A stretch of 50,533 nt of DNA from Candidatus Parcubacteria bacterium (GTDB taxonomy: Bacteria > Patescibacteriota > Minisyncoccia > Phycocordibacterales > UBA5272), in assembly GCA_039805745.1 (NCBI GenBank), contig JBDLTQ010000014.1, positions 1 to 50,533 of the forward strand, written 5' to 3'. Below, in pieces: positions 11,621 through 44,541 of this stretch. Within the stretch, counting starts at the first letter, position 1. Every line of letters starts with the position of its first letter. A program made the translations under genes and the position numbers. Below the pieces are notes generated by a model that had not been told where the DNA came from, did not search any database, and was given only the letters and a program-made list of their open reading frames with translations.

Positions 11621-11741
11621 CCTCAGCTATTTCTGATATAGAAGCTCTCATTGAGAAGTACTTTTATACAATATCTACCAAAAATATTGATACTTTTTAT
11701 AAACCTATCTTACACAATAAAACTTTTCTTTATAGTAATAA

Positions 11742-12965: not shown

Positions 12966-12974
12966 GGAAATACA

Positions 12975-14033: not shown

Positions 14034-14222
14034 ATATAGTAGAGTATATCAGGAGACAAGAGAAGCACAATTGGATAACTCACATATTTTCAAAATATAA
14101 AGTATAGCTGTTAGTCATTAGCATATAAGGTATAGAAGAATGCAAGAGTTATATTCCTCTACACTACACGCTATATGCTATTTCCGCACCACATATTCTA
14201 TATTCTAATCTCCCTGCAATGA

Positions 14223-15974
14223 CTAGAGCTCTGCAAGTTCAATAAATGGTATCTTGCCTGACATACATTTAATCATTGCATCCTCTTTGATAGTAATCAT
14301 TCCGTCTTTGCGTGCAAGTTTATAAATTTCTTCCTCTCCCTTACTACGCAAAATCGCCTCCTCTATCTCATCTGTGATAGGCAAGACTTCAAACACTGGA
14401 GTTCTTCCCTTCATACCGGTAGGGTTTTCATTATTCGGCTTTGCCTCATACAAAGGTCTACTGATCTCAAACTTCTGTTTAAACTCATCTGGTAAATCAG
14501 CGAACTGAGTATCTACCAACTCCCTAAGAGAAGGAGTCATCTCCATAGGCACACCACAACCAGTAGCAATAGAACGAGAAAGACGCTGCCCAAGCGCTGC
14601 GATAAGCACAGGAGCTATAAGATACGGTTCAATACCCATGTCTAAAAGACGTGTAATTACACCAATGGACGTGTTGGTGTGGATTGTTGAAAACACCAAG
14701 TGTCCTGTAAGAGCAGCTTGAATAGCGAGCTGAGCAGTTTCTGCGTCACGAATTTCTCCCACCATAATAACATCAGGGTCTTGACGAAGGATAGAACGAA
14801 GCCCTGAAGCAAATGTATATCCAATATCAGGAAACACCTGTGACTGGTTCATACCACCAATGTTATATTCAACCGGATCTTCGAGAGATACGACATTTTT
14901 ATGATCACGATCGATTTCATTTAACATCGAATACAATGTTGTTGTCTTACCAGAACCAGTAGGACCGGAGATGAGCACCATACCGTATGGAGCACCGATT
15001 GCTTCACGAATATGTTTCATTTGAAGCTCAGAAAAACCTAAATCATTCAACAATTTTACACCTTTAATACTATCCAAAATACGGATCACGATCTTTTCAC
15101 CATAATACCCAGGGAATGAAGACACACGGTAGTCGATCTTTCTTTCTCCAAACTTAGTACTAAAACGTCCATCTTGAGGTTTACGTTTCTCGTCAAGCTT
15201 CATAGCACACAACACCTTGATACGTGCAATAACCATCGGGTGAAGTTTAATCGGAAGAGCGGCTATCTGCTCAAGACGACCATCCATACGAACACGCACA
15301 CGAACATTTAAGCCAACGTGTTCTATATGAATATCAGACGCTCCATTATCAATAGCATAACGAAGCACGGTACTAAATATTTCAGGAACAGGGAGCTTTG
15401 CAAGATTTTTATCAAGAGCACCAGAAGTATTGGCAAGATCGATATCTTCGTCTTCTATTTTATCATCATCTAACTTATCATCTTCTTTAGCAACATATGT
15501 CAAAACTTCATTATCAACCTTATCAGTGACACTCGCTTTTTCTTCTGGTTTTTCATCACCAGTGATACCAAAATGAGACTTAAATGCATCAAATGTAATG
15601 AGATACACTTTATAAGGCTGATGATCAGCACCAAAAAGAAATTGCAAACTTCCAAGCACGTTCGCATATTCTGGATCAACCACCCCAATCAAAAGCACAT
15701 CATCTTGCACTTCAAGAGGAACAGCGAGGAGTTGTTTTGACTGCACCACACTCACATATTTTGTAAGCTCTTGATCATTAGCAATTTCCTTGCTGTATAT
15801 AGGTAGACCATGTAAGGTACTTCGCACTTCAGCTATTTCTTCACTTGAAATACCTTTTTTTGAAAGAAGATCATCAACAAAAAGCCCTTGATTCGCAGAA
15901 AGAGCAGTATCTATTTCTTTTGCTTCTATTTCAGTAAGCTTGCTTTGACTAACAAAAAGATCAAGGAGTAACAT
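14223..15974 (-). CDS. pilB: Type IV pilus assembly ATPase (GspE/PilB family)
   Basis: N-terminal GSPII_E_N-like region, Walker A GPTGSGKTTT, LRQDPDVIMVGEIRD, FSTIHTN. ORF codon 1 at 16010 is GTG; the ATG at 15974 overlaps the upstream gene by 14 nt. Confidence 0.93.
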   Translation of the reverse strand: MLLLDLFVSQSKLTEIEAKEIDTALSANQGLFVDDLLSKKGISSEEIAEVRSTLHGLPIYSKEIANDQELTKYVSVVQSKQLLAVPLEVQDDVLLIGVVDPEYANVLGSLQFLFGADHQPYKVYLITFDAFKSHFGITGDEKPEEKASVTDKVDNEVLTYVAKEDDKLDDDKIEDEDIDLANTSGALDKNLAKLPVPEIFSTVLRYAIDNGASDIHIEHVGLNVRVRVRMDGRLEQIAALPIKLHPMVIARIKVLCAMKLDEKRKPQDGRFSTKFGERKIDYRVSSFPGYYGEKIVIRILDSIKGVKLLNDLGFSELQMKHIREAIGAPYGMVLISGPTGSGKTTTLYSMLNEIDRDHKNVVSLEDPVEYNIGGMNQSQVFPDIGYTFASGLRSILRQDPDVIMVGEIRDAETAQLAIQAALTGHLVFSTIHTNTSIGVITRLLDMGIEPYLIAPVLIAALGQRLSRSIATGCGVPMEMTPSLRELVDTQFADLPDEFKQKFEISRPLYEAKPNNENPTGMKGRTPVFEVLPITDEIEEAILRSKGEEEIYKLARKDGMITIKEDAMIKCMSGKIPFIELAEL

Positions 15975-16311
15975 ATGGAACGAAAGGATTAGGACGCCCT
16001 CTCGTGTCACTCATAGGAACCTCAAGCGGAATATCTGAAAAAGATTTATACAAAACACCGTTGATAAAGTTGAGACTTTTATTTGAGTCGAGTTGAATTT
16101 TTTGATTAGGATCAGCAACTGCTTGAGCGGAACGCTGTATCTTTGGATTGCCAGAAAAAATACCAATATTAACAGATGAGAGGCCTGGGTCAGTATTTAC
16201 TTGTTCTCCAGTAAAAAATACAACATATCCAAGATACGCCGTGAAGCCAATAATACCAGCGATGATAACTCCTGCAACAATCCCCTCTAATTTTTGAATA
16301 TTTATATCCAT
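15961..16311 (-). CDS. Small bitopic membrane protein, putative pilus assembly component
   Basis: One TM (IVAGVIIAGIIGFTAYLGYVVFF). C-terminal RGRPNPFVP resembles the R-D/N-P-F motif of PilP-type proteins (weak). Lies between the pilO-like gene and pilB. Confidence 0.5.
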   Translation of the reverse strand: MDINIQKLEGIVAGVIIAGIIGFTAYLGYVVFFTGEQVNTDPGLSSVNIGIFSGNPKIQRSAQAVADPNQKIQLDSNKSLNFINGVLYKSFSDIPLEVPMSDTRGRPNPFVPYVTP

Positions 16312-16325
16312 ATACTGTCAAAAAA

Positions 16326-16913
16326 TTACTTCATATAATAAACCTTAGAACTCATTGTTATATTGAGGGACTCAGTATCTTCTATGATAGCCTTTTGCGC
16401 TGAAGAATCATCTTGTTCTGGTCGTTGTATTGCAAGTTGTTCTATGTTGAAAAATCGCATACTCCTCTCATAATTTTCTACAAATGTTTTAAATGTTGGA
16501 TACTGTGTTCTCATAGAAAAAGAAACATTATAAGCGTTAAGCCCTTTTTCACCTTTAAGATCTTTTTCAACTTTAAGACCATCTATCGCAACCCCTGAAT
16601 TCGCTGCAATAGTAATAACCTCATTACGGAGCTTTACTTGATCAATCGTATCAGGCATCATAATACTCATCTTAAGCTTATCCTCCTCTTTTACACCTTC
16701 AAAATCACGTGAAAGTTTAACAGCGCCACGCTCTATTGCAGTTACTTGGTTAAGCGTATTAGCATATTGAACATTAAGTGACTGCATTCCTCGAATATTT
16801 TTTTCTGGTGTCCACACAAGACCAGGATCACCGGTATACATTGGATCTATATATCCAAAATAAAGAACAGCAGGAAGGAGAACGAGCAAAATGTTAAGAA
16901 GTTTTGGTGACAT
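16326..16913 (-). CDS. PilO-like bitopic pilus assembly protein (putative)
   Basis: N-terminal TM LLNILLVLLPAVLYFGY followed by a periplasmic-type domain. Gene order is pilM, N-like, O-like. Confidence 0.5.
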   Translation of the reverse strand: MSPKLLNILLVLLPAVLYFGYIDPMYTGDPGLVWTPEKNIRGMQSLNVQYANTLNQVTAIERGAVKLSRDFEGVKEEDKLKMSIMMPDTIDQVKLRNEVITIAANSGVAIDGLKVEKDLKGEKGLNAYNVSFSMRTQYPTFKTFVENYERSMRFFNIEQLAIQRPEQDDSSAQKAIIEDTESLNITMSSKVYYMK

Positions 16914-30728: not shown

Positions 30729-32456
30729 CTAAACAGATTGCTCTAACTTTTTTTCAATCTCTTTCTCTGTTATCTCAAGTCGTTTTTTGAACTTCTTAAG
30801 TATCGCCTGTTCTTCTTTGGTGAGCTCACGTTTACGCTCTGCTTTTACAAGTACATCATGAAACTCTTCAATATCACGACGAAGCGCTGAAACATTCACC
30901 CTAAGTGTACTCTCTGCTTCTTTTAGGTTACGCTTCACCTTACGACGGAATCGTCTAAACTGAACAAATGAATACCATAATGTTGCGAGCACCATGAGAA
31001 CTGCAATCACAATAATAAGTATCACGGAGAGCCAATTCATGACAAAGATACCGAGACGAAGTAGTACCATTCTTTCAACAACAATAACTTTTGTGTCAGT
31101 ATAGTCACTAATAGAACCACGACCATCCGAAACTCTTGCTCGCATTTCGTATACACCAGAATCAAGACGACTACTCCATACAAGTGTGAATACTCCAGCC
31201 TCATTTGAAGAAGCATGTTCTGTGAAGGTCTTTCCTTCAGCATTTGTAAGCACTACTTCTATTTGTGATTGCGGATATGTTGCACCAACAACCTTAAAAC
31301 GAGTATCAAAATCTACTTTCTTTGTGTACTCAGTAATGACAGGAGGGGCAATAGCCTGAATAGTCACATCAAGAGTTACTGTGCTTACATTTCCAGCATT
31401 ATCAATAGCGCTCACAACAACAGAATGATTACCGGCAGACTGTTTTGGTAAACGATATAAATGAGAAGAATCAACAGGAAACTCTATTGGCTGTCCATTA
31501 TCAATACTAAGAGTAATCTTGTTTACACCTGAAAGAGAATCCTCTGCTTGAACAGAAACGGCAGGTGTCTGATTAGTCGTAACAGCCCCATCTGGGAATG
31601 AAGCCTTGAGTGACTCAGGCGGCTGAGAGTCTACAAGGAATGCGTAGGTTGCTTTACTCCCCCATCCACTCTTGTTTTTAAACTGAACATGCATATAAAA
31701 CGTACCATCACTCTCAACAGTAAAGGAACGATTTGTTACAGGTGGATCATATACCTTAGATGGTGTATCAGATTCTTTTTCGCTATAAATAGTTCGAATA
31801 GCAATCACCCCACTTGGGACTTTCCATTCAAACGATGCATCTTTTCTGCTGTACCATTTTGTGCTATCTGGATGTGTTGGAGAAGTAATAACCGGAACAA
31901 CAGACGCGCTCACCTGAGTAGAGGGAGCGCTCACAGCGTCTTCTTCATTAATATACACAAATGCTGATCCTGTTGTTTTCAAAACATCTGTTGCGTTACC
32001 ATCATTAGCTAGAACTGACCCCTGTTTTATGGCGACACTTACATTGCCTGCCTGTTTAGCTTTAAAAGTAACCGTGACTACTTTTCCTGATGCTTTACTA
32101 TACCCTGGATTAAGAGCAACTCCTTCGAGAGACACCGTTCCTTTTGTATTAGAAAAAGCCGGCTCTTCTGCCCAAAGAGTAATAAAAGAACCACTCTTAG
32201 AGAGGGAGAGTACTTCTAATGCATCAGAAGGAAATGAGAGTGATGCAGATACAGCATTGATAGACTCAATATTATTTGTCACCATAATATCAACAGAAAA
32301 TGTCTTGCCAACTTTTGTAGAAACAGAAGATGGACTAACAATAAGATTAGCAGCGAAAGTTACCTGAAATGCACAAACAACACTTGCAATAAGAATAAGA
32401 AAACGAGTAGGTGGTCTATGTTGTTTGAGAAAGGAAGAAATGATTTCTTTTAGCAT
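30729..32456 (-). CDS. Cohesin-domain surface protein with Ig-like domains, C-terminal TM and cytoplasmic coiled coil
   Basis: Signal peptide. Cohesin-like module LIVSPSSVSTKVGKTFSVDIMV...VTVTFKAKQAGNVSVAI. Ig-like segments (SGVNKITLSIDNG, AIDNAGNVSTVTLDV). TM WLSVILIIVIAVLMVLATLWY. K/E-rich tail. Confidence 0.7.
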   Translation of the reverse strand: MLKEIISSFLKQHRPPTRFLILIASVVCAFQVTFAANLIVSPSSVSTKVGKTFSVDIMVTNNIESINAVSASLSFPSDALEVLSLSKSGSFITLWAEEPAFSNTKGTVSLEGVALNPGYSKASGKVVTVTFKAKQAGNVSVAIKQGSVLANDGNATDVLKTTGSAFVYINEEDAVSAPSTQVSASVVPVITSPTHPDSTKWYSRKDASFEWKVPSGVIAIRTIYSEKESDTPSKVYDPPVTNRSFTVESDGTFYMHVQFKNKSGWGSKATYAFLVDSQPPESLKASFPDGAVTTNQTPAVSVQAEDSLSGVNKITLSIDNGQPIEFPVDSSHLYRLPKQSAGNHSVVVSAIDNAGNVSTVTLDVTIQAIAPPVITEYTKKVDFDTRFKVVGATYPQSQIEVVLTNAEGKTFTEHASSNEAGVFTLVWSSRLDSGVYEMRARVSDGRGSISDYTDTKVIVVERMVLLRLGIFVMNWLSVILIIVIAVLMVLATLWYSFVQFRRFRRKVKRNLKEAESTLRVNVSALRRDIEEFHDVLVKAERKRELTKEEQAILKKFKKRLEITEKEIEKKLEQSV

Positions 32457-33372
32457 AAAGGTACGCCACTACACATATGATGAGTATAGTTATATGTATC
32501 AGTATACGCGATAATAAAGAGATGCGGTGAGAGTTTTCAACAGGTTGAATCGTTTCGATTGCATACGAGTTATTAGCATATACTATTTTAATATGAAGAT
32601 ACTTTGACCTATCTTGATGTATAAGCATGTATGGTGATGAAACAGCTCGCCACTCATACGAAGCAACAGCTTGCGCACTCACCGCATCACTCTCAGCAAC
32701 AAAGATCTGCTCTATTGGACTATATGATTCTTTTTCTGTGACACTAAGATACCACGCATTACGATAAACAAGATCACTTCGTGAGAGAGATATTAATAAA
32801 TTACTACTACTCACCTGTTTCTCTGGGAGAGATGTAAGTGTCGGCCTTATAGGAAGACTCTTCACATCAACACGTTCTACCACCTGAGTAGTAGGAATAG
32901 ATGTCGCCCTCTCATTAAAAGTATTAAGAGTGATTGTATCTATTGTAAGAAGACTCTCACCTCTTTTTTTAGGAATAAGAATAAGAGAAAAAGCTTTACC
33001 ATCTTTTACACCGTCATAATACGCACTACGCACTCCACTAAAACCACCAGCAAAAATACCTTCAAACGTCACATGTGTCCTGTTATCAAGATATCGCTCA
33101 TCAGAAACATGAGGATACACAACCCATGGAGTAACAACACTACCACTTGTAGTTATTGTATAAACATCAAACATATCACTCTGGAATGAAAAATCACCAG
33201 CTACACCACTTAACGGTACCCCTTCTGGAGCAATGAACACATCGACAACAAAGGGTTGTCCGTCTTTTGGTATCCCTTGTGAAAAAACAAGACGTAGGGA
33301 AGCTGCAGACACTTGTAATGTAGCAACACTAATAGTAGAAACTATAATAATAGTACGTAAAAAATATCTCAT
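32416..33372 (-). CDS. Cohesin-like surface protein with C-terminal TM anchor
   Basis: Signal peptide ending VSA-AS. LRLVFSQGIPKDGQPFVVDVFIAPEG...GDFSFQSDMFDV is cohesin-like. C-terminal TM ILIHITILIICVVAYLY. Confidence 0.6.
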   Translation of the reverse strand: MRYFLRTIIIVSTISVATLQVSAASLRLVFSQGIPKDGQPFVVDVFIAPEGVPLSGVAGDFSFQSDMFDVYTITTSGSVVTPWVVYPHVSDERYLDNRTHVTFEGIFAGGFSGVRSAYYDGVKDGKAFSLILIPKKRGESLLTIDTITLNTFNERATSIPTTQVVERVDVKSLPIRPTLTSLPEKQVSSSNLLISLSRSDLVYRNAWYLSVTEKESYSPIEQIFVAESDAVSAQAVASYEWRAVSSPYMLIHQDRSKYLHIKIVYANNSYAIETIQPVENSHRISLLSRILIHITILIICVVAYLYAKRNHFFLSQTT

Positions 33373-33376: not shown

Positions 33377-34360
33377 TTATCCAGTCCAGCAATATGCCAA
33401 AATACTAAGGTCTGTTAAATTAATTTTCCCGTCAGAACTAAGATCAACCTTTACAGGAAAACCGAGCCGTTTATACCAAAAGGCCATAATACTAAAATCA
33501 AGAATATTCACCCTGTTGTCATTATTTAAATCACAACGTTTTCTAAAACCAGCTAATTCTTTTGTTTGTGTTCTAATCCTATCAGTATCGCCCACTCGAA
33601 ATGGTACGGTTTGAGAATAGGGAGAAAGGTCATCTACAGTAAGTGATCTAGCTTTACCGTCATGATCACCAAGTTCAAGCTCACTTGAATCAAGTTTATA
33701 CAACCACGACCCTTGTGAATTGGCTTTTGTTTTTTTGAGAAGTTCTGTATCTGAATGAAATGAAAGCCTCACTTCAGCATCAGGACTTGATCTTCCAAGA
33801 AAAGTAATAATCTCTCCACGCTTTACTTCTACTTTATCAGAAGTAATAGTTGGTGGAATAAAAATACCATCAACTATTGTTGTCACACCAGAAGTGACAT
33901 AGATCGTAAATGTAAGCAGCTTTGAAGTACGTCGTTCTGTATCTTCTGCCCTCACCCCAAAACTATAGGTACCTTGTGTAAGATTACGAAGGCGTATTTC
34001 GAAAGTTCCATTTGGACTCGCAGGCATTTCAGCAACAATACTGCCGTTTTTAAGAAGAGAAATAACACTTCCCGGATAAGCTAATCCTTTAAACACTGCA
34101 ACATCTGTTGTGTCTATAGTAATAGGTGCAATCGGACTTGTTGGTGGAATAGGTGGTGTATCAGGGTACACAATAGGAGGCTGAGGAACAACAGCTGATA
34201 TAGATATATCAACAGTAAGAGGGTTCGTTGTAGTTACTTGCGCAAAAAGAAAGTAATACGGAAAAGAAAACAGTACAAAAAAAAGAAAAAATCTTTGTAT
34301 TATTTTTTTTAAAGACACTCCTACTCTTTTGCCGCTGCTCGCGCTTGCTTGATAATCCAT
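33377..34360 (-). CDS. Dockerin-containing exported protein with two Ig/CarboxypepD_reg-like domains
   Basis: Two EF-hand-like dockerin segments at the C-terminus, DLNNDNRVNILD and DLSSDGKINLTD (33380..33535). The ATG at 34360 overlaps the upstream gene by 40 nt. A GTG at about 34315 (SLKKIIQRFFLFF...) would remove the overlap. Confidence 0.75.
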   Translation of the reverse strand: MDYQASASSGKRVGVSLKKIIQRFFLFFVLFSFPYYFLFAQVTTTNPLTVDISISAVVPQPPIVYPDTPPIPPTSPIAPITIDTTDVAVFKGLAYPGSVISLLKNGSIVAEMPASPNGTFEIRLRNLTQGTYSFGVRAEDTERRTSKLLTFTIYVTSGVTTIVDGIFIPPTITSDKVEVKRGEIITFLGRSSPDAEVRLSFHSDTELLKKTKANSQGSWLYKLDSSELELGDHDGKARSLTVDDLSPYSQTVPFRVGDTDRIRTQTKELAGFRKRCDLNNDNRVNILDFSIMAFWYKRLGFPVKVDLSSDGKINLTDLSILAYCWTG

Positions 34361-35298
34361 CGGTTATATCGCTTAACGAGAATCATGAGAAGAACAATAA
34401 CAAGAAGCACCGCAACAAGTACGACTGTTATTAAGTGCCATGGGAAGATAAAATACGTAAGAGAAGCATTCGCTGTCCCAGAATTACCAAATGTAAGTCC
34501 AAGATCTGCAGTGTACATACCAAGAGCAAAATGCTTCATTTGAAATTTAACATGATCAAAAAATGGAGCAGAGACAGCTGGCGCATCTACATCTCCTAGA
34601 CGAAATTCAAATTTGCGAGTACTTCCTGGGAGAACATTTCCTTGTGATGGGTTTGCATTAATATTTGCAACATCACCACCAAACATATTAGTAATCACAA
34701 CACTACCTTCTGGCTTCGCTCTATCGTTACCTGTGTTATTAAATTTATATACAAAATCAACAGGAAGACTAGTGAAAACTTTATCTCCATCCTTAGTAGC
34801 AAAAGACGAAAGTCCTCCGCTTTCTTTGATATCTCCAGTTACACGAAGAAGGATAAGCATACCAATCTTTGAACCAACAGAGACTTGCCCTTCTTCAGCA
34901 GATGGAGGAACTGTTGAGAGAAAGATAGCTGCAAAATGCCCGCCTGATTCAGCTTCTTGTGGAATAGTCACCGTATATGGTACCGCAAGACGCTCCCCCT
35001 TTTTAATTACCACCTTTTCTGCAATAGTTACCCATGTAGAAAGCCCTTCTTGTGCTTGAATAAAGTTCGGGGTACCTGTTTCCCCTTGCGCGTCAAAAGC
35101 TTCAACAGAAGTATACAAGACTTGATCTGTATCTTGCTCATTAATAACAGTGAATGTTTTTGTGATGGTCTCACCTTTGTCACCCGTTAATTCTTCACGA
35201 GCAGGAGATACCGTGAGAGCAAAGGCACTCTGCACACTAAGCGCAGTAACAAGAAGTGAGGCAGATGCTATTTTTTTTACTATAGATGTAGCTGTCAT
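34321..35298 (-). CDS. DUF916/DUF3324-like cell-surface protein with C-terminal TM anchor
   Basis: Signal peptide (..SAFA-LTVSP), two beta-rich halves (..GGHFAAIFLS.. and ..NVLPGSTRKFEF..), C-terminal TM ITVVLVAVLLVIVLLMILV followed by KRYNRW. Same architecture as CscA/DufA proteins of WxL loci. Confidence 0.55.
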   Translation of the reverse strand: MTATSIVKKIASASLLVTALSVQSAFALTVSPAREELTGDKGETITKTFTVINEQDTDQVLYTSVEAFDAQGETGTPNFIQAQEGLSTWVTIAEKVVIKKGERLAVPYTVTIPQEAESGGHFAAIFLSTVPPSAEEGQVSVGSKIGMLILLRVTGDIKESGGLSSFATKDGDKVFTSLPVDFVYKFNNTGNDRAKPEGSVVITNMFGGDVANINANPSQGNVLPGSTRKFEFRLGDVDAPAVSAPFFDHVKFQMKHFALGMYTADLGLTFGNSGTANASLTYFIFPWHLITVVLVAVLLVIVLLMILVKRYNRWIIKQARAAAKE

Positions 35299-35319: not shown

Positions 35320-36441
35320 CTAGAAGTTAGCCGTTGCTACATACACGAGACTTGCGGCATATGTACCAGCTTCTGTAATAGCTGAAATGTTGGCAAGATA
35401 ACGAAGAGAGAGAGTTGATGTGAGTGTTGCTCCCGACCCTGTAGCAAAAAGAGCTGATGTTGTAGCTGTGCCATCATATCCATACGATGTAGCACCTGAA
35501 AATGTCTGATCTACAGTCACACCAGTACCGCCAGTTTCTGTAGCACGAATACCGAACTGCTCAGTTCCTGCAGTAGATGAGGCGTACGATGCACCAATAT
35601 AAGAAATTGTATTCGCCGAATTCTGTTGTGATGTAAGAGTCTGTCCACGAACTGTAAGTGCGAATCCAGATGGCGCATTAGTGGATACTCCAAGTGTGTG
35701 TGCGATTGTTTCTGTTGTATCTCCTGAAGTATTGGTAGATGAAGCAAACTTAGCTGCGCCTGATCCTAGGTTTCCAAAATAGATAGTAGATGTAGAGATA
35801 GTAAAGGTGAGAGATTGAGGAACAGTTCCTGTCATAGCAACAGTGTCATCGTTAATGATTGTTGTGGTGATAGACCCTGTGTCAGTAAAACTACCAGCTA
35901 CGAGAATCTCGTAGCTCCCTGGTGTCGCTGGGTTGGTGATTTGTGATACACCTGTTGCTCCAGAGGTAGCATTAGAACCTATTTCGATCTGTATACAACG
36001 GTTAGCTGGAATAACTGCTGTACCTGAAGTGATGGTAATAGTCTGAGATCCTTGAGCAACTCCCCATGTGAGTCCTGATGCTGATGAGGAAACAAGAGCG
36101 TCAGTAAATCCTGAACAAGTAGCAGAAGTACTTGTCGCAAGGTCTATATTATTCACATTAAAGCTTCCCATAGTATACCCTGCAGGAAAAGTAAGGGTAA
36201 TATTCTGTCCGGCTGCAACACCTGTTGGTGTAACAAACTGAATAGTGTGATCAGAGAGGGTGTTTATCTTTACTGATGACTGAGAATCTGAAAGAGATGA
36301 CAGCGCTGCTGCATGAACTATCTCAACATGAGTGATAGACACACCGAGAACAACCGCAAAAATAGTGAGAGCGCTCACACAAGAGGATATAAAATTTTTC
36401 TTCAACATAACAAAATAAATTACTACTAAAATACAGGTCAT
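35320..36441 (-). CDS. Exported protein, paralog 1, with Trp-less WxL-like C-terminal domain
   Basis: Signal peptide ..VEIVHA-AALSS. Shares roughly three quarters of residues (by eye) with the next gene. C-terminal about 160 aa shared with the 1091-aa protein; ends YVATANF. An alternative ATG at 36408 aligns with the paralog start. Confidence 0.85.
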   Translation of the reverse strand: MTCILVVIYFVMLKKNFISSCVSALTIFAVVLGVSITHVEIVHAAALSSLSDSQSSVKINTLSDHTIQFVTPTGVAAGQNITLTFPAGYTMGSFNVNNIDLATSTSATCSGFTDALVSSSASGLTWGVAQGSQTITITSGTAVIPANRCIQIEIGSNATSGATGVSQITNPATPGSYEILVAGSFTDTGSITTTIINDDTVAMTGTVPQSLTFTISTSTIYFGNLGSGAAKFASSTNTSGDTTETIAHTLGVSTNAPSGFALTVRGQTLTSQQNSANTISYIGASYASSTAGTEQFGIRATETGGTGVTVDQTFSGATSYGYDGTATTSALFATGSGATLTSTLSLRYLANISAITEAGTYAASLVYVATANF

Positions 36442-36462
36442 GATCTCTACATCATTGTCTGT

Positions 36463-36513
36463 ACCTATAAGTGTACCATTTTAAGGTAAATATGCAGGAA
36501 AAAGTGTGGATAA
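36463..36513 (-). promoter_or_regulatory. Candidate promoter/operator: TTATCCACA ... TATAGGTA
   Basis: Minus strand reads TTATCCACACTTTTTCC..(36 nt)..ATAGGT, 22 nt before the ATG at 36441. Confidence 0.4.
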
Positions 36514-36530
36514 GATACACAATAAACAAA

Positions 36531-37616
36531 TCAGTAGTTAGCGGCGGCAACATAAACAACACTTGCTACATACGTACCAGCTTCTGTTGTACCTCCGATG
36601 TTAGCAACATATCTAATAGAATACGTTGAAGTATTAGTTGCGCCAGACCCCGTTGCGAACACAGCAGATGTTGTAGCGGTTGCGTCATATCCATAAGATG
36701 TTGCAGCGCTATATGTTGCATCGACAGTAGCCCCTGTTCCACCAGATACTGTAGCACGAATACCGAACTGCTCAGTTCCTGGAGTAGATGACGCCGCGGA
36801 AGAACCCATCGCAGTAATAGTATTAGAAGAACTCTGTTGTGATGTAAGAGTCTGCCCACGAACTGTAAGTGTGTATCCAGTAGAAGCATTAGTAGACACA
36901 CCGAGCGTATGAGCAATTGTTTCTGTTGCGTCCCCTGAAGTATTGGTAGATGAAGCAAACTTAGCAGCACCTGATCCTAGGTTTCCAAAATAGATAGTGG
37001 TGGTAGAAATAGTAAAAGTAATAGACTGCTGTACCGTAGCACTAATCACAACCGTATCGTCTGTAATAATATTCTGTGTAATACTCCCAGAATCAGGACC
37101 AGCAATAACAGTGATTGCGTATGATCCTGGTGTCGTTGGGTTGGTAATCTGTGTAGCCCCGTTTGCTGATGATGTTGCGTTAGAACCAATCTGAATCTGC
37201 ACACAACGGTTGGCAGGAATAACGGCAGTACCTGATGTGATATACACCGTCGCCGTCGCTTGAGTAACACCCCATGTGAGTCCAGATGCCGCACCTGACT
37301 GAATAAGTGCATCAGTAAAACCAGAACACGTAGCGGATGTGGATGTAGCAAGATCGAAGTTAGCAATAGCAAAAGTTCCCGTTGCGTAGTTAGATGGAAA
37401 AGTAATACTAATTCCTTGACCAGCAGAAAGACCTGTTGGTGTCACGAACTGAACAGTATGATCAGAGAGGGTGCTTACTTTTACTGATGACTGAGTATCT
37501 GAAAGACTAGAAAGTGCAGCAGCAAAAACAATCTCGACATGAACAATCGAGACACCAAGAACAATGCTTATAACGGTAAGCCAACTGACACACCACTTAA
37601 AGGAATTACTTTTCAT
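36531..37616 (-). CDS. Exported protein, paralog 2, with Trp-less WxL-like C-terminal domain
   Basis: Signal peptide ..VEIVFA-AALSS. Two conserved Cys (ATCSGFTD, PANRCVQI). Ends YVAAANY. Confidence 0.85.
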   Translation of the reverse strand: MKSNSFKWCVSWLTVISIVLGVSIVHVEIVFAAALSSLSDTQSSVKVSTLSDHTVQFVTPTGLSAGQGISITFPSNYATGTFAIANFDLATSTSATCSGFTDALIQSGAASGLTWGVTQATATVYITSGTAVIPANRCVQIQIGSNATSSANGATQITNPTTPGSYAITVIAGPDSGSITQNIITDDTVVISATVQQSITFTISTTTIYFGNLGSGAAKFASSTNTSGDATETIAHTLGVSTNASTGYTLTVRGQTLTSQQSSSNTITAMGSSAASSTPGTEQFGIRATVSGGTGATVDATYSAATSYGYDATATTSAVFATGSGATNTSTYSIRYVANIGGTTEAGTYVASVVYVAAANY

Positions 37617-37716: not shown

Positions 37717-40700
37717 TTAGAAATTAGCAGTGACAACATAGACTAACCCTGTTGTATAATTTTCTGGTTCAGTAAGTGCAGAAATATTCGTAACATACCT
37801 CACTGAAAATGTTGTTGTTGCATTATCACCAACAGAGGCAGAGGCCACCTGACTTGAAGTTGTAGCCGTTCCAGCATACGCGAAACCGCTCGCTGCATAA
37901 GGAGCAGTCACAGTACCAGATCCACCAGAAGATGTCACACGCAAGCCAAACTGTTCTGTGCCGATAGTTGAAACAGTATTTGTACCACCTATTGCATTAA
38001 CAGTATATATACCAGCATTAAGTGTTTGACCTCGTACAGTAAGCATGTAGCCATTTGAAGCATTAGTGAGTACTTGTAGTGTATGAGCCTCGACCTCTGT
38101 ATCACTACCACTGCTATTTGTACTTGACGCATATCTTGCAATCACTGGAGAAGCTTGTCCTAAATAAATAGTAGATGTTGAAAGAATAAGCGTTAGTGAC
38201 TGCGCTGGTGCAGCGTTACTCTCTTCATCCCACTCGAACAAAAAACGATACCGCACAAGTGCATCTCCTTGTGTTTGCTCTTGGTAAAAAGCTAACCCTT
38301 CCCCTTCTTTTATCACAAGCTCATCACCGTAGTACACAGTACTCTCATAATCACCATACACTTGATTCACCGCACCCGGTGTGGTGACACCAAGAAGTCT
38401 AGAACTTGTTGCTCCTGAAAAAGTAGCTGAAAGGCCTGTTGTTCTTACTTCTGCAGTTGAAGTACTTGTACTTGAGTGCTTTTTTGGAATACTTGAGGAT
38501 GCTATGAGAGTACCGCCAGACGCTGTAGTAACACGGCGTATAGCAAGTGGTGTATACACAGGGGCGACACCTGTTCCACTTCGATCAGCACGCACCGCTA
38601 TTTTGCGTACCAGATAATTTTTACCAGAACCTGAAGGATTAAATAATGAAGAATATACATACCCTTGTGTTGTCGCTTGGTTTACTGGACCCGTTGTCAT
38701 AAGATACTCACTTTGAGAACTTGGCGATGAAGACTCTTCATCCCATTCAATGAGCATCTTAACTCTAAAATCAACATCCCCTGCAGAGGTGTCGTGGTAC
38801 AATCCTACCCCTTCCCCTGGCTGAAGCACAATATACTCTCTGTTACTAAACTCAATATCTTTATACCCAGTATTACCAGCAGAGGCTGAGGCAACTGCTC
38901 CTGGTGTCTGAATAGCTAATAATTTAGAATCTGTTGTACCAGAATATGTTGCCGTCACACCGGTGCGACGTATTTCCATAATACTGTTAGACGACCCTGT
39001 GTGTTTTTTTGGAATATTCGCTGCCGTTATTTGTGTACCAGCAGACGCGGAAGCAATACGACGTAATTGCATAGGAATATACACCGCAGTAGTAACAGCA
39101 TCAACACGTAAAGATACTCTTCGTATAATAGCTGTCTTACCAGAACCAACGGGGTTAAAAAATGTTGCATAATTATAGCTTGTCGCAGTACTTCCATTTA
39201 TCGGCCCTATATCTACAATATATTCACCCTGTGAAGATGGTGCTGATGCCTCCTCATCCCATTCCACCATAATCTTTATATAATCATCAACATCAGCTGT
39301 CGCACTATTGTACAGACCGATACCCTCACCTTCTTGAAGAATTATTTTTTCATTTCCTTCAAAAACTATTTCTCGTTGACCTATTGTTTGTCCAACTGCA
39401 CCAGGTGTGTTTACACTAAGAATATTAGAATCTGTTGTTCCTGAATAGGTAGCAGTTATCACCGAAGCACAAGCTGATCCACACCATCTAATCTGCATCG
39501 TACTTGACGCAGAGTCTGTATTCTTCTGTGGAACACTTGATGTGGCAATAAGTGTTCCACCAGACGCTGCGGTTATTCTTCTAAAACTAAAGGAGACATA
39601 GTTCGCGGTTGTGTCTGCATTAATACGTATTACCAACCGTTTTATAACAGCAACTTTTCCAGAACCTGATGGATTAAAAAAAGAATAGTGAGTTGTGTTC
39701 GCAGCTGAAGCAGACTCAACCCTTGATGAAGCCCAGAGGTACCCACCTTCTGCTGTTGGTGTATTAGCAGCTGAGACTTCTTGCCATTCTATAATCATAC
39801 GAACAAGCTGATCTGTATCTCCTGCTGTTTCAGATAACAAGGCTACCCCTTCACCTTGCTGTAAAATAAGTTTTTCATCACCTTCATAAAAATCTAACTG
39901 TTGCCAACCACTAGCCTGACCAGCTGCGCCACATGGAGTAACATTTGCAATACGTGCATCCGCTCCACCTACTACTGTCTCTGTTGGATTTGTATGACGG
40001 AATTCCATAACACTATCTGCAGAACTGGTATTTTTTTTAGGGATATTTGTCGATGTCACTTGTGTACCACCAGTTGACGCAGAGATACGTTGAAGTACAA
40101 GATTATTGGTATATACCGCCGCCGCATCACAAGTCTCTGAGCCAAACCAGATACGTTTTACTATTGCTGTCTTACCAGAAGAGCTCGGATTAAAAAAAGA
40201 ATTATACGTATACCCTATGGCTGCGTTAGCTTCCACTCGGGGGAAAGAGTAAAGAAATTCATCTTGAGATGCTGGTGCATTAACCGTCTCATCCCACTCA
40301 ATAAGAACAAGTACTTTTGAGTTTGTGGTTCCAGCAGCTTCCTGATACACAGCAACACCTTCTCCTGGCTGAATAACCAGCTTCTCATCATTTTGACCAA
40401 AGGTTATATCTCGTCCACTTTGATATGCTCCAACAGCACCAGATAATGGCTGTCCTATAATACGAGAATCAGTAGTCCCAGATAAGGTAACGGATGGTCC
40501 AGCTTGACGAATTTCTACAACAGAATCACTCGAGGCAGTATTTTTCTTTGGATAATTAGTAGCTGTTATCTGAGCACCTCCTGATGAGGTAGAGATTCTA
40601 CGCATTGTGAGATTCACGTAATTAGAAGCAGATGACGTAGTATTAGAACGTATAGCGATGCGTTTAATGGAAGCCGTCCTGCCAGAGCCTGATGGATTCA

Positions 40701-40992
40701 TAAAAGAAGCATAGACATAATTAGCAGATGCAGACCCATCAACAGGACCAATATCGACAACATATTCTCTTTCTCCTGAATTGACCGCCGCATGTACTGT
40801 CGTTCCCTTAAAATAGACATCAACCACATTTGGATTTTTTGAAGCAAGATACATCATATCTACAACCTTACCCCTCGGATGAATAACTTCCTGATAGACA
40901 ACGTACGATAAAGTCGCTGGATCAACTCCAGAAAAAAGCATCGAAATGATGTACACCCCCGCCAGTGTTTTTTTAATAAGGTCTCGCAACAT
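37717..40992 (-). CDS. 1091-aa exported protein: five tandem ~170-aa modules plus the shared WxL-like C-terminal domain
   Basis: N-terminal anchor/signal AGVYIISMLFSG. Repeats at aa 76-244, 245-416, 417-589, 590-761 and 762-932. C-terminal aa 933-1091 is about half identical (by eye) to the paralog C-termini; ends YVVTANF. Confidence 0.9.
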   Translation of the reverse strand: MLRDLIKKTLAGVYIISMLFSGVDPATLSYVVYQEVIHPRGKVVDMMYLASKNPNVVDVYFKGTTVHAAVNSGEREYVVDIGPVDGSASANYVYASFMNPSGSGRTASIKRIAIRSNTTSSASNYVNLTMRRISTSSGGAQITATNYPKKNTASSDSVVEIRQAGPSVTLSGTTDSRIIGQPLSGAVGAYQSGRDITFGQNDEKLVIQPGEGVAVYQEAAGTTNSKVLVLIEWDETVNAPASQDEFLYSFPRVEANAAIGYTYNSFFNPSSSGKTAIVKRIWFGSETCDAAAVYTNNLVLQRISASTGGTQVTSTNIPKKNTSSADSVMEFRHTNPTETVVGGADARIANVTPCGAAGQASGWQQLDFYEGDEKLILQQGEGVALLSETAGDTDQLVRMIIEWQEVSAANTPTAEGGYLWASSRVESASAANTTHYSFFNPSGSGKVAVIKRLVIRINADTTANYVSFSFRRITAASGGTLIATSSVPQKNTDSASSTMQIRWCGSACASVITATYSGTTDSNILSVNTPGAVGQTIGQREIVFEGNEKIILQEGEGIGLYNSATADVDDYIKIMVEWDEEASAPSSQGEYIVDIGPINGSTATSYNYATFFNPVGSGKTAIIRRVSLRVDAVTTAVYIPMQLRRIASASAGTQITAANIPKKHTGSSNSIMEIRRTGVTATYSGTTDSKLLAIQTPGAVASASAGNTGYKDIEFSNREYIVLQPGEGVGLYHDTSAGDVDFRVKMLIEWDEESSSPSSQSEYLMTTGPVNQATTQGYVYSSLFNPSGSGKNYLVRKIAVRADRSGTGVAPVYTPLAIRRVTTASGGTLIASSSIPKKHSSTSTSTAEVRTTGLSATFSGATSSRLLGVTTPGAVNQVYGDYESTVYYGDELVIKEGEGLAFYQEQTQGDALVRYRFLFEWDEESNAAPAQSLTLILSTSTIYLGQASPVIARYASSTNSSGSDTEVEAHTLQVLTNASNGYMLTVRGQTLNAGIYTVNAIGGTNTVSTIGTEQFGLRVTSSGGSGTVTAPYAASGFAYAGTATTSSQVASASVGDNATTTFSVRYVTNISALTEPENYTTGLVYVVTANF
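38197..40767 (-). repeat. Five in-frame tandem coding repeats of about 510 nt (169-173 aa)
   Basis: Each unit carries Y-x-Y-x-[ST]-F-[FM]-N-P-[SV]-G-S-G-[KR], [IV]-[KR]-R-[IV], L-x-R-I, S-G-G-[TA], [IY]-P-[KQ]-K-[NH]-T, G-T-T-D-S, P-G-A-V, E-K-[LI]-[IV]-L-Q-x-G-E-G, and [IVF]-E-W-[DQ]-E. The DNA copies are diverged. Confidence 0.9.
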
Positions 40993-41968
40993 AGTGATAT
41001 ACTTCTTCGCCTATTACCTTAAACAACTGTTCTATTTCTTTTCGCTTAAACTCATCACCATTTTTTTGTTGTATCATAACAGTGAGAATGTACGGTCTTC
41101 CAGACACATACACAATACCAGAATCTGCCATCACTTTTTCATCTAAACGAATACCTGTTTTATGAACAAAAGGTACGTCAGATGGTATTCCTGTACTAAG
41201 AAGATCATTAGGCGCTTGTTCAAGTATATCCATAAAAAGTTCTGAATGTTTTTGGTCTAAAAATGTCGCATTATACAGTGATCGAAAAAAAATAGAGTAT
41301 CGCTTCGCGGTAATACGATTATCAACCTCTTTGTCTTTTTTATTTCTTTTGAGGGCCTCGATAACATCATCCATACCAAGGTGCACATACACATCTTCAA
41401 GCTCTGCGTTTTCGAGATTGCGAAGCAGTATAAAGTGTGCCGTGTTATCAGAATTAATAAGGGATTCTTTAAGCAGGTTCTCAATAGCTATTGTTGTTCC
41501 ATTTGGTTTTTTGTATAACTCACCATAATCACTATCTTTATCCTCTTCCAAAATAACAAGCTCGTTAGAAAGTTTCCAATCTCCCTCTTGCACTTTCTTC
41601 ATTGCTGTCATAGCAACAGGAATTTTAATAAGACTTGCAGGCCACATTCGCTCATCTTTATTGATCGCAATACTTGCTCCAGTTGGAAGATACTCAAAAT
41701 AAATAGAAATGAGAAAATCATCACGATGCTCATATGTGGTTGTGAGCTTTTCTCGAAGCGTTTGAAAATCAACAATAAGATTCCTTTTATCAAGGATACG
41801 AAGTGCTGGATTAAGATAACGATTATCAACACCCATAGAAGACTCATTAGAATGAAGTGTGATATACAGCACAAAAATAACAAACATACTAATAACGCTT
41901 ATAAGTGCAACCTTATATCGATTGATTATTTTTTTACTATCTGGTGTTGTAGTGGTACGATACTGCAT
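40973..41968 (-). CDS. Membrane-anchored class-A beta-lactamase-fold serine hydrolase
   Basis: N-terminal TM VALISVISMFVIFVLYITL. SxxK (ASLIK), SDN (INSDNTAH), KTG (HKTGIR). The stop overlaps the start of the 1091-aa gene by 20 nt. Confidence 0.75.
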   Translation of the reverse strand: MQYRTTTTPDSKKIINRYKVALISVISMFVIFVLYITLHSNESSMGVDNRYLNPALRILDKRNLIVDFQTLREKLTTTYEHRDDFLISIYFEYLPTGASIAINKDERMWPASLIKIPVAMTAMKKVQEGDWKLSNELVILEEDKDSDYGELYKKPNGTTIAIENLLKESLINSDNTAHFILLRNLENAELEDVYVHLGMDDVIEALKRNKKDKEVDNRITAKRYSIFFRSLYNATFLDQKHSELFMDILEQAPNDLLSTGIPSDVPFVHKTGIRLDEKVMADSGIVYVSGRPYILTVMIQQKNGDEFKRKEIEQLFKVIGEEVYHYVARPY

Positions 41969-41970
41969 AG

Positions 41971-44541
41971 TTATTCAACAATGGACACAGAGCTCTCTTC
42001 AGAAGAACCTTCTGTTGTCTCTTTTTTTTCTTCGACAGGAAGATTCAGATTACTAATAGCATCTTCGTCGAGAACTTTATCAAGTTCAAGTTTTTTTCGA
42101 AGCGCTTCAGCAACTAACACATCATCATCAGAAAAAACCTCACCTGTTTCCCTGCTATAAAACACAAACCCACCAGAAGAAATAATAACCTCAAAAGGTA
42201 CACCTTCGAAGGATACATGTCCACGCTCTCCATGTGACACATCAAACGGTTGTAGAGCTTGCTCTAGTATACTATTTGTAGTGAGATTATATGCATACAC
42301 GATACTCCTATCATTAGACAACCAAAAGACATGTCCAGCTTTAACCCCAATAGGATAGTCCCCCGCAAAAGAAGTACTTGAACCTGTGTCAATTTTTTGT
42401 TGAGTTCCTTTTTCTACATCATATAACCACAACTCCTCTCGAGACTCTTTTTCCACCTGAACAATAATTGCATTCAAAAATGTCCCTTTTATCTTCTTAA
42501 TAATATCAAGAGCAAAGTCAGGAACTCTCTCCTCTTTCTCTTGTATATCTAAAGCTTCTTTATCTTTTTTGGTTATCTCTTCAATGAGAGACTGCGTTGC
42601 TATTGTTTTTTCTACCACACCGTTATATTTAAGCCATTTATTTTTTGGCATCACTGGTTGTATAGGGGTTGTGGTACTGTTATTTTTTTGTATAACAGTT
42701 GAGGTTGATACCTGTAGTGGTGTCGTAGTCCCCATTTCTGAAGATGTTGCTTGTGAGGTCGTTGAAGTAGGAAGTAAAATCAAAGCATCTGTACTGCTTG
42801 CTGTGTGAAGAAGTGAGGAACTCGCCTCTACTAAAGAAGTAGTAACAGTACTTGTAGCCTCCTGTTCGAGATACATATACCAGATTTCTTCTTTGTTGGT
42901 TTCATTGTTAATAATAGTCACAACACGCACACCATTAAGCACTTCATCATTAAGTATGGTATCACGCGTAAAATCTGGATGGGTATACACAAGAGCACCC
43001 TCATAGAGAACTTCTACTTTTACTGCGTCAAGATAGACAGTTGGTGTCTCATCAATTGATTTTTTTGAAACAATTTTTATCTGAAGCTGACTCATATCTT
43101 TCCATGTAGTTGAAGCGGTAACAGGTATCTCAAATGTACGGTACTTCATAGAAATTTCATTAAGCTCACCAAGAGATGTCCATAAAACACCATCAAATGT
43201 ATAGATAATCTCAAGAAAATTATTTTGTGTATCATTTGCTTCTGTTACAACCTCTTGAGGTGTAGAGGCAGTCTGTTCAAGAGACGTGGCGGCAATGGTA
43301 GAAGTCGACGGCGCTACATCAGTTGATGTTGCGGTAGATGTCGATACAATACTAGTGAGGTTCTCATTAGTTGAGGAAGCTGTAGAGCTCTCACTCGCTG
43401 CTGTGTCTTGAGAAAGAGAGGTCTGACTAGACTGTTCGTTATCGATAGAATTAGGGAGAGATTGTTCATTACTTTCTGTTGTTGTACTCATTGTGGCAGT
43501 ACTCTCTGTAGAATGAGTAGTGTCCACGATACTATCACCCTCTTCTGCAAACACTGTTGGTGCCACAAAAGAAGAAATATTAAACAACAAAGACTCAAGT
43601 AGTGATGTTGGTTCTGGTTGTGTTTCTGTCTCTTTCGGAGAAGATTGATCTACAGAAGGTGTCTGTGTTTCAGGTGAGGATGTCTCTCCTACTTGAGACT
43701 CTTCTTTCTGAGGAATCGGAGCAATCACTGTATCTGTTTCTGTAGGAAGAGTACTAGTATTCTCAAAAAGATCAGCTACAACATCTTTAACTGAGTCAAA
43801 AAGAGTACCGAAAAAAGTTTGTGAACCGTCATGAGAAGAACTTGTCGCTATCTCACTTGTAGAAGAAGTAACTACTTCAGTACTCGCTGTTGCTGGCGCA
43901 CCTAACACAGTAGAGGAACTCTCTTCCGAAGAAGTACTAGAAGTAGCTGTCAAAGAAGCCCCATCTAAAGAAGAAGATGCCTGCAAAAGAGTGAACGATA
44001 CTTCTGTTGTAGAAGCGGTATCAAGAATAGCTTGTGAAGACGATGCAAACGTCTCTCCATGAATCATCTCTTCAAGAACAAGTTCATCGCCTTTTGTCAT
44101 AGCAAATGAGACGAGTATCTTTACGGGTGTTGTTGTATCATCAAATGTTCCAGAAAAGTTTCCACAGTAGATTTCAGCCTGAGTATTCTTTGGAAGCACC
44201 GCGGAATTACTTGATGTAAATAACGTAACATCACCATTAGATGCAGTTTGTGGCTCGCCTTCTGCATTACGAGGATTCACCCATCCACCCAAACATGTAT
44301 CAGGGTGAAATATTACACTATCAGCTTTTCCTTTTGGAGAAATAAAATTACCGAGCACGAGCAACAACACCAAGGTTGAAAGCGTCATCATGAGACGTTT
44401 CTTTTGAAGTGTCTTATCAACTTGTTTTGAATATTCAAAAACCAAGCCCTCCAAAGACTTCGTTACATTATCCACATGTGACGTTACTTCTGGAAACTTC
44501 TTCGAAATAATACGTGGTCGTTTAAGATGGAATTTGCCCAT
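41971..44541 (-). CDS. 856-aa signal-anchored Ser/Thr-rich surface protein, unknown function
   Basis: TM LMMTLSTLVLLLVLGNFI, long S/T/E-rich low-complexity tracts, structured middle and C-terminal segments. Ends 2 nt before the next gene. Confidence 0.8.
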   Translation of the reverse strand: MGKFHLKRPRIISKKFPEVTSHVDNVTKSLEGLVFEYSKQVDKTLQKKRLMMTLSTLVLLLVLGNFISPKGKADSVIFHPDTCLGGWVNPRNAEGEPQTASNGDVTLFTSSNSAVLPKNTQAEIYCGNFSGTFDDTTTPVKILVSFAMTKGDELVLEEMIHGETFASSSQAILDTASTTEVSFTLLQASSSLDGASLTATSSTSSEESSSTVLGAPATASTEVVTSSTSEIATSSSHDGSQTFFGTLFDSVKDVVADLFENTSTLPTETDTVIAPIPQKEESQVGETSSPETQTPSVDQSSPKETETQPEPTSLLESLLFNISSFVAPTVFAEEGDSIVDTTHSTESTATMSTTTESNEQSLPNSIDNEQSSQTSLSQDTAASESSTASSTNENLTSIVSTSTATSTDVAPSTSTIAATSLEQTASTPQEVVTEANDTQNNFLEIIYTFDGVLWTSLGELNEISMKYRTFEIPVTASTTWKDMSQLQIKIVSKKSIDETPTVYLDAVKVEVLYEGALVYTHPDFTRDTILNDEVLNGVRVVTIINNETNKEEIWYMYLEQEATSTVTTSLVEASSSLLHTASSTDALILLPTSTTSQATSSEMGTTTPLQVSTSTVIQKNNSTTTPIQPVMPKNKWLKYNGVVEKTIATQSLIEEITKKDKEALDIQEKEERVPDFALDIIKKIKGTFLNAIIVQVEKESREELWLYDVEKGTQQKIDTGSSTSFAGDYPIGVKAGHVFWLSNDRSIVYAYNLTTNSILEQALQPFDVSHGERGHVSFEGVPFEVIISSGGFVFYSRETGEVFSDDDVLVAEALRKKLELDKVLDEDAISNLNLPVEEKKETTEGSSEESSVSIVE

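Follow-up and report, generated by a model that had tools for sequence, protein, structure and literature searches.

Organization of the locus

We analysed a stretch of 50,533 nucleotides (nt) from a Candidatus Parcubacteria bacterium (contig JBDLTQ010000014.1 of assembly GCA_039805745.1), hereafter the window, with a focus on one reverse-strand gene for a secreted protein of 1091 amino acids (aa). From the letters alone, an initial annotation had described five tandem units of about 170 aa in this protein and had read them as a beads-on-a-string stalk that projects the N-terminus away from a C-terminal anchoring domain. The gene encodes a leader, five modules and a C-terminal domain of the type found in the pilins of the Pam pilus, and genes for two Pam pilins lie directly downstream (Table 1). 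The Pam pilus is a donor-strand-exchange pilus of the Candidate Phyla Radiation (CPR)/Patescibacteria that was described in 2026 in Ca. Mycosynbacter amalyticus (10.64898/2026.03.03.709456).

Table 1. Parts of the five-unit gene and neighbouring genes in the window (Ig, immunoglobulin; TM, transmembrane)
Feature	Position	Strand	Length or residues	Remarks
Five-unit gene	37717..40992	-	1091 aa	Secreted; leader, five modules and Pam pilin C-terminal domain
Signal peptide/signal anchor	40918..40992	-	aa 1-25	Predicted Sec-type; basic n-region R3, K7, K8; hydrophobic LAGVYIISMLFSGV
Leader/pro-region	40768..40917	-	aa 26-75	Motif VVDxxYLAxxNxNVVD, kept in orthologues; C-terminal end TVHA↓AV
Unit 1	40261..40767	-	aa 76-244	
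Unit 2	39745..40260	-	aa 245-416	Most conserved unit; unit-specific Cys288 and Cys354
Unit 3	39226..39744	-	aa 417-589	Unit-specific insertion WCGSACASV containing Cys504 and Cys508
Unit 4	38710..39225	-	aa 590-761	Modelled on its own
Unit 5	38197..38709	-	aa 762-932	Linker to pilin domain as long as unit-to-unit linkers
Pam-pilus pilin C-terminal domain	37720..38196	-	aa 933-1091 (159 aa)	Ends ...LVYVVTANF
Two-domain Pam pilin	36531..37616	-	361 aa	NF058581, 68.7 bits; alignment; conserved synteny
Two-domain Pam pilin, second shaft subunit	35320..36441	-	373 aa	NF058581, 65.0 bits; conserved synteny
325-aa protein	34321..35298	-	325 aa	Signal peptide, C-terminal TM helix, middle part beta-rich by eye; position kept in L005-L008
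327-aa protein	33377-34360	-	327 aa	Big_6 and Dockerin_1 domains
Downstream protein	32416-33372	-		Signal peptide, C-terminal TM helix
575-aa protein	30729-32456	-	575 aa	Signal peptide, C-terminal TM helix, Big_13/OmpL47-type Ig domains, charged C-terminal tail
Class-A-beta-lactamase-fold serine hydrolase	40973..41968	-	331 aa	Membrane-anchored; Pfam PF13354, E=5.9e-40
Ser/Thr-rich secreted or membrane protein	41971-44541	-	856 aa	No family match; two genes upstream of the five-unit gene

Five old and diverged units

The five units align end to end over positions 38197-40767 of the window, with 38-49% identity in amino acids and 51-55% in codon-aligned nucleotides, and the five full-length tandem repeats of the initial annotation are hence borne out. 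All ten BLASTP comparisons between unit pairs gave E values of 2.5e-26 to 2.7e-48 (100-156 bits), while 100 shuffles of unit 5 reached 22 bits at most. Tandem Repeats Finder reported no DNA-level array, and the repeat signal in the DNA is limited to patches of 45-67 nt with 60-77% identity, spaced about 516 nt apart. The repeat is therefore real, old and diverged at the protein level, and neither a recent expansion nor an assembly artefact, as the initial annotation had held from the divergence of the nucleotide copies. The ladder of motifs described there is also present, but calling it invariant was an overstatement: 23 of the approximately 169 columns are strictly invariant, and variants of the motifs include GSGR/SSGK, SAGT, PQKNT/PKKHS, GGADA/GATSS, SGAV/CGAA and IEWQE/FEWDE. 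Short Pro-containing linkers join the units to one another.

Upstream of the units, the AlphaFold model of the whole protein has a helix at residues 2-19, and this N-terminal signal helix may be cleaved off. The leader at aa 26-75 is not a folded domain, as the predicted local distance difference test (pLDDT) score is below 50 at residues 37-68, and with a mean entropy of 1.97 bits it is the most variable part of the protein. The 5' end of the gene shares 20 nt with the 3' end of the upstream gene.

The module family and its predicted fold

The initial annotation could not place the module in any family, and our searches came to the same result. Both the single unit and the whole protein gave only chance matches in Pfam (ATPase_2 and SopE), and the unit had no match in PHROGs. 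In NCBIfam it hit no family apart from weak matches to ABC-ATPases (modC and a sulfate transporter), which are due to a Walker-A-like NPSGSGKT loop. A survey of 78 family members against Pfam returned no relevant family, the single match being DUF3246 in one member (E=0.0094), and no sequence relative was found in the PDB for either the 1091-aa protein or the family profile. Moreover, no known Ig-like or adhesin repeat family in Pfam, NCBIfam or PHROGs matches the unit at high confidence; the initial annotation had reasoned that such a match would make the protein an ordinary repeat adhesin.

Relatives of the module are nevertheless plentiful. A profile search yielded 82 of them, and the search with a hidden Markov model (HMM) that the initial annotation had proposed, carried out exhaustively over 1.84 billion representatives, yielded 872 module representatives at E<=1e-3 (clustered at 50% identity). 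The family, defined by our alignment A2, has a module of about 165 aa with the core pattern F-N-P-x-x-S ... R-[IV]-T-x-x-S-G-G-T-L ... E-V-R ... G-E-G ... W-x-E, and the A2 profile matches all five units of the window protein with independent E values of 3e-39 to 2e-46. The module defines a sizeable domain family that is absent from Pfam, PHROGs, NCBIfam and the PDB.

An AlphaFold2 model of unit 4, built from an alignment of 78 sequences, is all-beta with 10 strands (pLDDT 92.4; predicted template modelling score, pTM, 0.88), and a jelly-roll-like beta-sandwich is confidently predicted for the unit. Foldseek comparison of the single unit with the PDB gave nothing significant (best E=3.4e-3 with probability 0.63 and a template modelling score, TM-score, of 0.27; all TM-scores <=0.36). 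The weak top neighbours were single jelly-roll capsid proteins, C1q and CBM35; as a whole, the weak neighbours of the module are mainly jelly rolls of the capsid, lectin and C1q types, plus a few enzymes. With the full-length model as query, loosely similar chains of tandem jelly rolls were retrieved (TM-score <=0.43; root mean square deviation, rmsd, 9-26 Å).

Among the loops of the module, F-N-P-x-G-S-G-K-T (e.g. FMNPSGSGR at aa 98-106) is the best conserved, and it mimics a Walker-A/P-loop motif. In the AlphaFold model it is a hairpin loop within the all-beta domain, and it may serve as an anion- or ligand-binding loop. We also considered the units as duplicated N-terminal domains of pilins and rejected this idea, given that hhalign assigns the module profile and the pilin, whose N-terminal domain was covered by the comparison, a probability of 0.06%.

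Relatives of the module in tailed phages

The significant structural relatives of the module are found among viruses. Foldseek against BFVD returned 27 matches at E<=1e-3, all of them uncharacterised viral proteins and nearly all from tailed phages, the best being HUN41_00113 of Streptomyces phage Coruscant (A0A7G4AW45; E=1.9e-11, TM-score 0.78). The structure prediction of one unit that the initial annotation had suggested hence led to uncharacterised tailed-phage proteins as the only significant relatives. By tblastn the module is present in 16 Streptomyces phage records with 34-42% identity; carriers of the module include the Streptomyces phages FlowerPower (gp42), Coruscant, BRock (gp150) and JXY1, and Pantoea phage LIMEzero (F4N9W0). 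The module is homologous to these phage proteins, and its family connects proteins encoded in virion gene modules of tailed phages with a putative bacterial pilus.

Stand-alone homologues with a single module (150-210 aa) number in the hundreds among metagenomic proteins, and the genomic context was examined for five of them, each of which is located within or next to a phage head/tail gene module. In FlowerPower-like podophages, for instance, the module gene stands between the major capsid gene and SU10-type adaptor or tail-fibre-like genes, and on a 95-kb contig it lies downstream of portal, protease and capsid genes. The position does vary: in BRock the module gene is situated between terminase and portal, directly upstream of the portal gene, and in Coruscant it is found among tRNAs. 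In longer proteins (330-800 aa), repetitive, fibre-like N-terminal parts come first and the module forms the extreme C-terminus, where the knob of a fibre is classically found. We infer that these longer proteins are of phage origin as well; two of them (P0167 and P0192) lie on contigs of only 2-4 kb, where the context is uninformative.

A prophage origin was considered for the five-unit gene itself and rejected, as the neighbouring genes are cellular and syntenic across metagenome-assembled genomes (MAGs). A pattern-limited scan of IMG/VR retrieved no close relative of the gene, and no other phage genes were evident among the open reading frames (ORFs) examined around it.

The C-terminal pilin domain and the adjacent Pam pilins

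The anchoring domain postulated by the initial annotation can now be assigned. The C-terminal part of the 1091-aa protein matches the NCBIfam model CPR_Pam_pilin_C (NF058581) with 59.7 bits against a cut-off of 55 (aa 959-1091, model positions 10-148), and the domain is 47-49% identical to those of both adjacent pilins. Judged from its sequence, it has a truncated Ig-like fold and accepts a donor strand. The NF058581 domain occurs in three ORFs of the window only, i.e. those of 1091, 361 and 373 aa, and therefore no separate PamT consisting of the C-terminal domain alone exists in the window.

In the published model, the linker of one Pam pilin fills the C-terminal groove of its neighbour on the distal side, and PamT, a subunit without linker, is proposed as the tip (10.64898/2026.03.03.709456). 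The 361-aa pilin of the window is built from signal peptide, N-terminal domain, linker and C-terminal domain. Both pilins carry the linker segment ...IITDDTVVISATV... before the C-terminal domain, which has no counterpart in the 1091-aa protein, and the donor segment ITDDTVVISATV ahead of this domain in both pilins is missing from the five-unit protein as well. There, according to the AlphaFold secondary structure, a short coil connects the last jelly-roll strand of unit 5 (residues 913-925) to the first strand of the pilin domain. The 361-aa pilin likely donates the strand that completes the pilin domain of the 1091-aa protein.

The five-unit protein does not fall into any of the named pilin types. 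It gave no match to the PamT equivalog (NF058579) at E<=1, and it lacks the single nine-strand N-terminal beta-sandwich with linker strand that characterizes PamA, PamB and PamE. The 361-aa pilin has no meaningful match among PDB sequences, the Pam structures apparently being absent from the PDB copy searched. The only related item in the preprint is a node near pam operons for an unnamed 'tail fibre-like protein' (10.64898/2026.03.03.709456); the preprint contains no description of the 1091-aa protein, and its supplement gives no identity for this node either. Beyond this node, our literature searches returned nothing on the five-unit protein or the module. Neither the module family nor the five-unit head has been described before; the type of system, a tip subunit in a donor-strand-exchange pilus, is already known.

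Both adjacent pilins (35320-37616) have a near-identical leader end, VEIV[HF]A↓AALSSLSD. The TVHA↓AV of the 1091-aa protein, about 45 residues past its hydrophobic helix, is similar to the corresponding site of these neighbours (VHA↓AA or VFA↓AA), and all three proteins may thus be processed at a shared type of site that is perhaps unusual.

Unit number, conservation and predicted rigidity

More than 100 near-full-length orthologues of the protein were found (1037-1124 aa, 49-69% identity), all labelled 'hypothetical'. Of nine related loci taken from Patescibacteria MAGs, mostly Saccharibacteria, the eight with a complete repeat region have exactly five units each. Among the 150 family proteins that reach 600 aa or more, exactly five complete units are present in 139 and more than five in none; nine proteins seem to have 2-4 units, but all of these start or end mid-unit and are apparently truncated at contig ends. 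The variation in repeat number that the initial annotation proposed to look for among relatives was accordingly not found. Spacer stalks normally vary in repeat number, and a strictly five-fold architecture in a single chain calls for a structural explanation.

The units also occupy a fixed place in the chain, with at most 91 aa before unit 1 and 98-2940 aa after unit 5 in the 139 complete homologues. A metagenomic fragment with a region of 547 aa before its first unit (P0112) is the sole apparent exception to this N-terminal placement, and another metagenomic fragment (P0109) has a Trp-rich repeat region after its last unit; both are truncated.

Moreover, the five positions are not equivalent. 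A given unit is 58-68% identical to the unit at the same position in other genomes, compared with 37-47% for different positions. Cys288 and Cys354 of unit 2 are kept in 104 of 105 orthologues, and Cys504 and Cys508 of unit 3 in all 105. Across the same orthologues the mean entropy is 0.88-1.24 bits for the units and 1.57 bits for the pilin domain, the units thus being the more conserved part. The full-length AlphaFold model, made from 112 sequences, reaches a pLDDT of 89.6 and has residues 37-68 as its only disordered segment. Its pTM of 0.82 over 1091 residues indicates that the predicted five-unit assembly is rigid rather than a flexible string, and the modelled inter-domain arrangement is probably compact.

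Extra domains in members of the family are inserted between unit 5 and the C-terminal domain. These are RCC1 repeats by Pfam and domains that look LamG-, FN3- or beta-helix-like, the latter judged by eye only. Since such spacer-like domains come after unit 5, the five-unit block is best described as a head and the spacers as its stalk. The C-terminal variants comprise proteins of about 1650 aa with an RCC1-repeat insert, giants of 2200-3800 aa and other types (L010 and L013), which suggests that the five-unit head has been reused in a modular way. Many divergent five-unit proteins with long inserts nevertheless retain a pilin-like C-terminal end, seen as full-length, sub-threshold matches to NF058581 (E 1e-6 to 2e-4). 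The block with varied C-terminal regions was observed at positions 9920-16585 of locus L012 and in the family proteins P0302, P0305, P0104 and P0095.

Conserved gene neighbourhood

The gene order around the five-unit gene is conserved in the related loci L005-L008. It runs from the Ser/Thr-rich 856-aa protein through the beta-lactamase-fold hydrolase to the five-unit gene and the two pilins, and continues with the 325-aa protein, a dockerin protein, a pair of proteins that each have a signal peptide and a C-terminal TM helix, and a flavin adenine dinucleotide (FAD) oxidase. As in the window, the two shaft pilins follow the five-unit gene directly and in the same orientation.

The Pam chaperones PamC and PamD are membrane-anchored and PapD-like with C-terminal TM helices, and the anchor PamR puts its N-terminal strand into the C-terminal domain of a pilin (10.64898/2026.03.03.709456). 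From its topology, its position and this description of the chaperones, the 325-aa protein is a candidate for a membrane-anchored chaperone of the PamC/PamD type; it has no family match in Pfam or in NCBIfam at E<=10, and no sequence match in the PDB. The three conserved genes further downstream could represent the pilus anchor, i.e. an analogue of PamR. When the downstream genes were compared with NCBIfam (E<=10) and Pfam for signs of a chaperone or of PamR, only Ig-like (Big_6, Big_13), dockerin and OmpL47-type domains came up. A dockerin-domain protein, SEML1_0315, was reported to be essential for the epibiotic growth of Southlakia epibionticum (PMC10633639).

On the other side, the serine hydrolase has intact SxxK (SLIK), SDN and KTG motifs. 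In seven of the eight related loci compared, the gene immediately upstream of the five-unit gene codes for a homologue of this hydrolase, in most cases with an overlap; none was detected in L011. The hydrolase also accompanies five-unit genes whose proteins have different C-termini, which suggests that the two genes are functionally coupled, perhaps in processing, cell-wall remodelling or attachment. The 856-aa protein keeps its place in L005-L008 and has partial matches in L011 and L013.

A putative tip subunit of a Pam-type pilus

We consider, with moderate confidence, that the five-unit protein is the distal (tip) subunit of a Pam-type donor-strand-exchange pilus and bears a fixed head of five modules, not a passive stalk. 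The protein would be exported by Sec, and its C-terminal 159 aa would then fold as an incomplete Ig-like pilin domain, and its groove would take up the linker strand of the following subunit, supplied by either of the Pam pilins encoded just downstream. It would accept a strand in this way but would be unable to donate one. A protein without a linker strand can be placed only at the far end of the filament, as with PamT and FimH/PapG, and the tip would thus display a rigid head of five non-equivalent jelly-roll-like modules. By analogy with these systems, the head most likely contacts the host cell of the episymbiont; the tip position, the binding of a ligand and the nature of that ligand are all points that we infer from such analogies.

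How CPR/Patescibacteria episymbionts recognise and hold their hosts is an open question, for which the five-unit protein offers a widely conserved candidate tip. How Pam pili contact the host envelope is stated as unknown in the preprint, and the tip pilin described there is a bare single domain (10.64898/2026.03.03.709456). More than 100 orthologues exist, all of them annotated as hypothetical, and the question is testable in cultivable Saccharibacteria.

Several points weigh against this proposal. Tip position and binding are argued by analogy with other pili. The C-termini of 45 of the 139 five-unit proteins are missed by a narrow pilin HMM derived from the window, so that the association of the head with Pam pilins is not a strict one. 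Orthologues have strongly conserved heads, and determinants of host range frequently are hypervariable; the head may have a conserved ligand. An uncleaved N-terminal helix would hold the N-terminus at the membrane, which would be incompatible with a tip position, and the A-x-A↓A-like site lies so far from the hydrophobic region that it is atypical for signal peptidase I. Furthermore, the candidate chaperone matches neither a family nor a PDB sequence, so that the assembly machinery in the window is putative. Finally, the genomic position of the phage homologues varies, as between BRock and Coruscant, and their function is unassigned.

A more specific form of the proposal, which we regard as possible but rather improbable, has the five modules packed side by side into a closed or fixed pseudo-oligomer within a single chain, e.g. 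a pseudo-pentameric ring, that sits on the pilus tip as the covalently fused counterpart of a homo-oligomer which the single-module phage proteins would form on virions. If true, CPR episymbionts would carry a phage-type receptor-binding device on the tip of their own pilus, directed to the kind of host envelopes that phages recognise, and the module would represent a new class of host-recognition domain common to phages and ultrasmall parasitic bacteria. The cultured phage carriers of the module infect Actinobacteria, which are known hosts of Saccharibacteria.

It seems unlikely that the protein is instead a surface head without a pilus shaft, its pilin domain being completed by the strand of a PamR-like anchor or by a chaperone to give a one-subunit fibre or a released protein. 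Such an arrangement would agree with the Pam model, in which the anchor strand enters a pilin C-terminal domain, and with the three conserved downstream proteins, all of which have signal peptides, two also Ig-like or dockerin domains (Pfam) and two a C-terminal TM helix; some five-unit proteins, in L010 and L013, moreover lack recognisable pilins downstream. However, two shaft pilins follow immediately both in the window and in L005-L008, and no PamR-type family is matched by the downstream genes.

We find it quite improbable that the protein is a phage virion protein that was domesticated for enzymatic or lytic functions rather than for adhesion, e.g. for degradation of envelopes or glycans or for host penetration, maybe together with the adjacent hydrolase. 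The module is indeed common to proteins encoded in phage structural gene modules, the hydrolase gene is a nearly constant and mostly overlapping neighbour, and the N-P-x-G-S-G-K loop, which looks like a phosphate-binding loop, shows strong conservation with invariant N and P and an almost invariant S; yet no catalytic family or fold was matched, and neither phage genes nearby nor close five-unit relatives in IMG/VR were encountered within the scope of the searches given above. Least probable of all, in our estimation, and largely refuted by several independent results, is the passive stalk or spacer of the initial annotation, holding something off the C-terminal anchor: tandem beta-sandwich modules with short Pro-containing linkers and a C-terminal pilin domain would suit it, but there is no N-terminal domain to project, the count of five is fixed and never exceeded, conservation is position-specific and includes unit-specific cysteines, the full-length pTM favours a rigid body, genuine spacer domains, where present, come after unit 5, and the units are more conserved than the anchor.

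Comparison with known systems

PamA, PamB, PamE and PamT have the same truncated Ig-like C-terminal domain as the 1091-aa protein, which scores above the curated cut-off, and share with it the Sec leader and the operon context with two-domain Pam pilins. Each of PamA, PamB and PamE consists of one nine-strand N-terminal domain plus linker, whereas the 1091-aa protein has a head of 857 aa made up of five modules. PamT lacks the donor linker strand, as the five-unit protein does, and the latter may work like PamT; it differs in being multi-domain, PamT being a single domain, and in not matching the PamT equivalog.

In FimH and PapG the N-terminal part binds the receptor and the C-terminal pilin domain can accept a donor strand but cannot give one, which places them at the tip. 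The 1091-aa protein resembles them in combining an N-terminal, putatively displayed part with a strand-accepting pilin domain that has no donor strand of its own. The likeness is architectural only, with no relation in sequence or family (no fimbrial or adhesin match in Pfam or NCBIfam). Moreover, the head of FimH and PapG is a single lectin domain, while that of the 1091-aa protein comprises five jelly-roll-like modules in about 860 aa, for which binding is predicted by analogy. Chaperone-usher systems also depend on an outer membrane and an usher, and CPR have neither.

In place of five modules, the tailed-phage proteins contain a single one, which stands by itself or ends a repetitive, fibre-like chain, and they have neither a PHROG family nor a solved structure. 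The broad fold class predicted for the module is also that of TNF/C1q heads (including the single-chain C1q 5hkj), PNGase F and the double-jelly-roll capsid proteins of PRD1 and PBCV-1, none of which gave a significant match; with full-length TM-scores of <=0.43 and rmsd of 9-26 Å, neither membership in these groups nor the same inter-domain packing is shown by such chains. Stalk adhesins with tandem Ig-like or Big-type repeats are likewise built from tandem extracellular beta-sandwich modules. The five-unit protein has no Pfam or NCBIfam match to them, and is set apart from them by its fixed number of units and by their non-equivalent positions.

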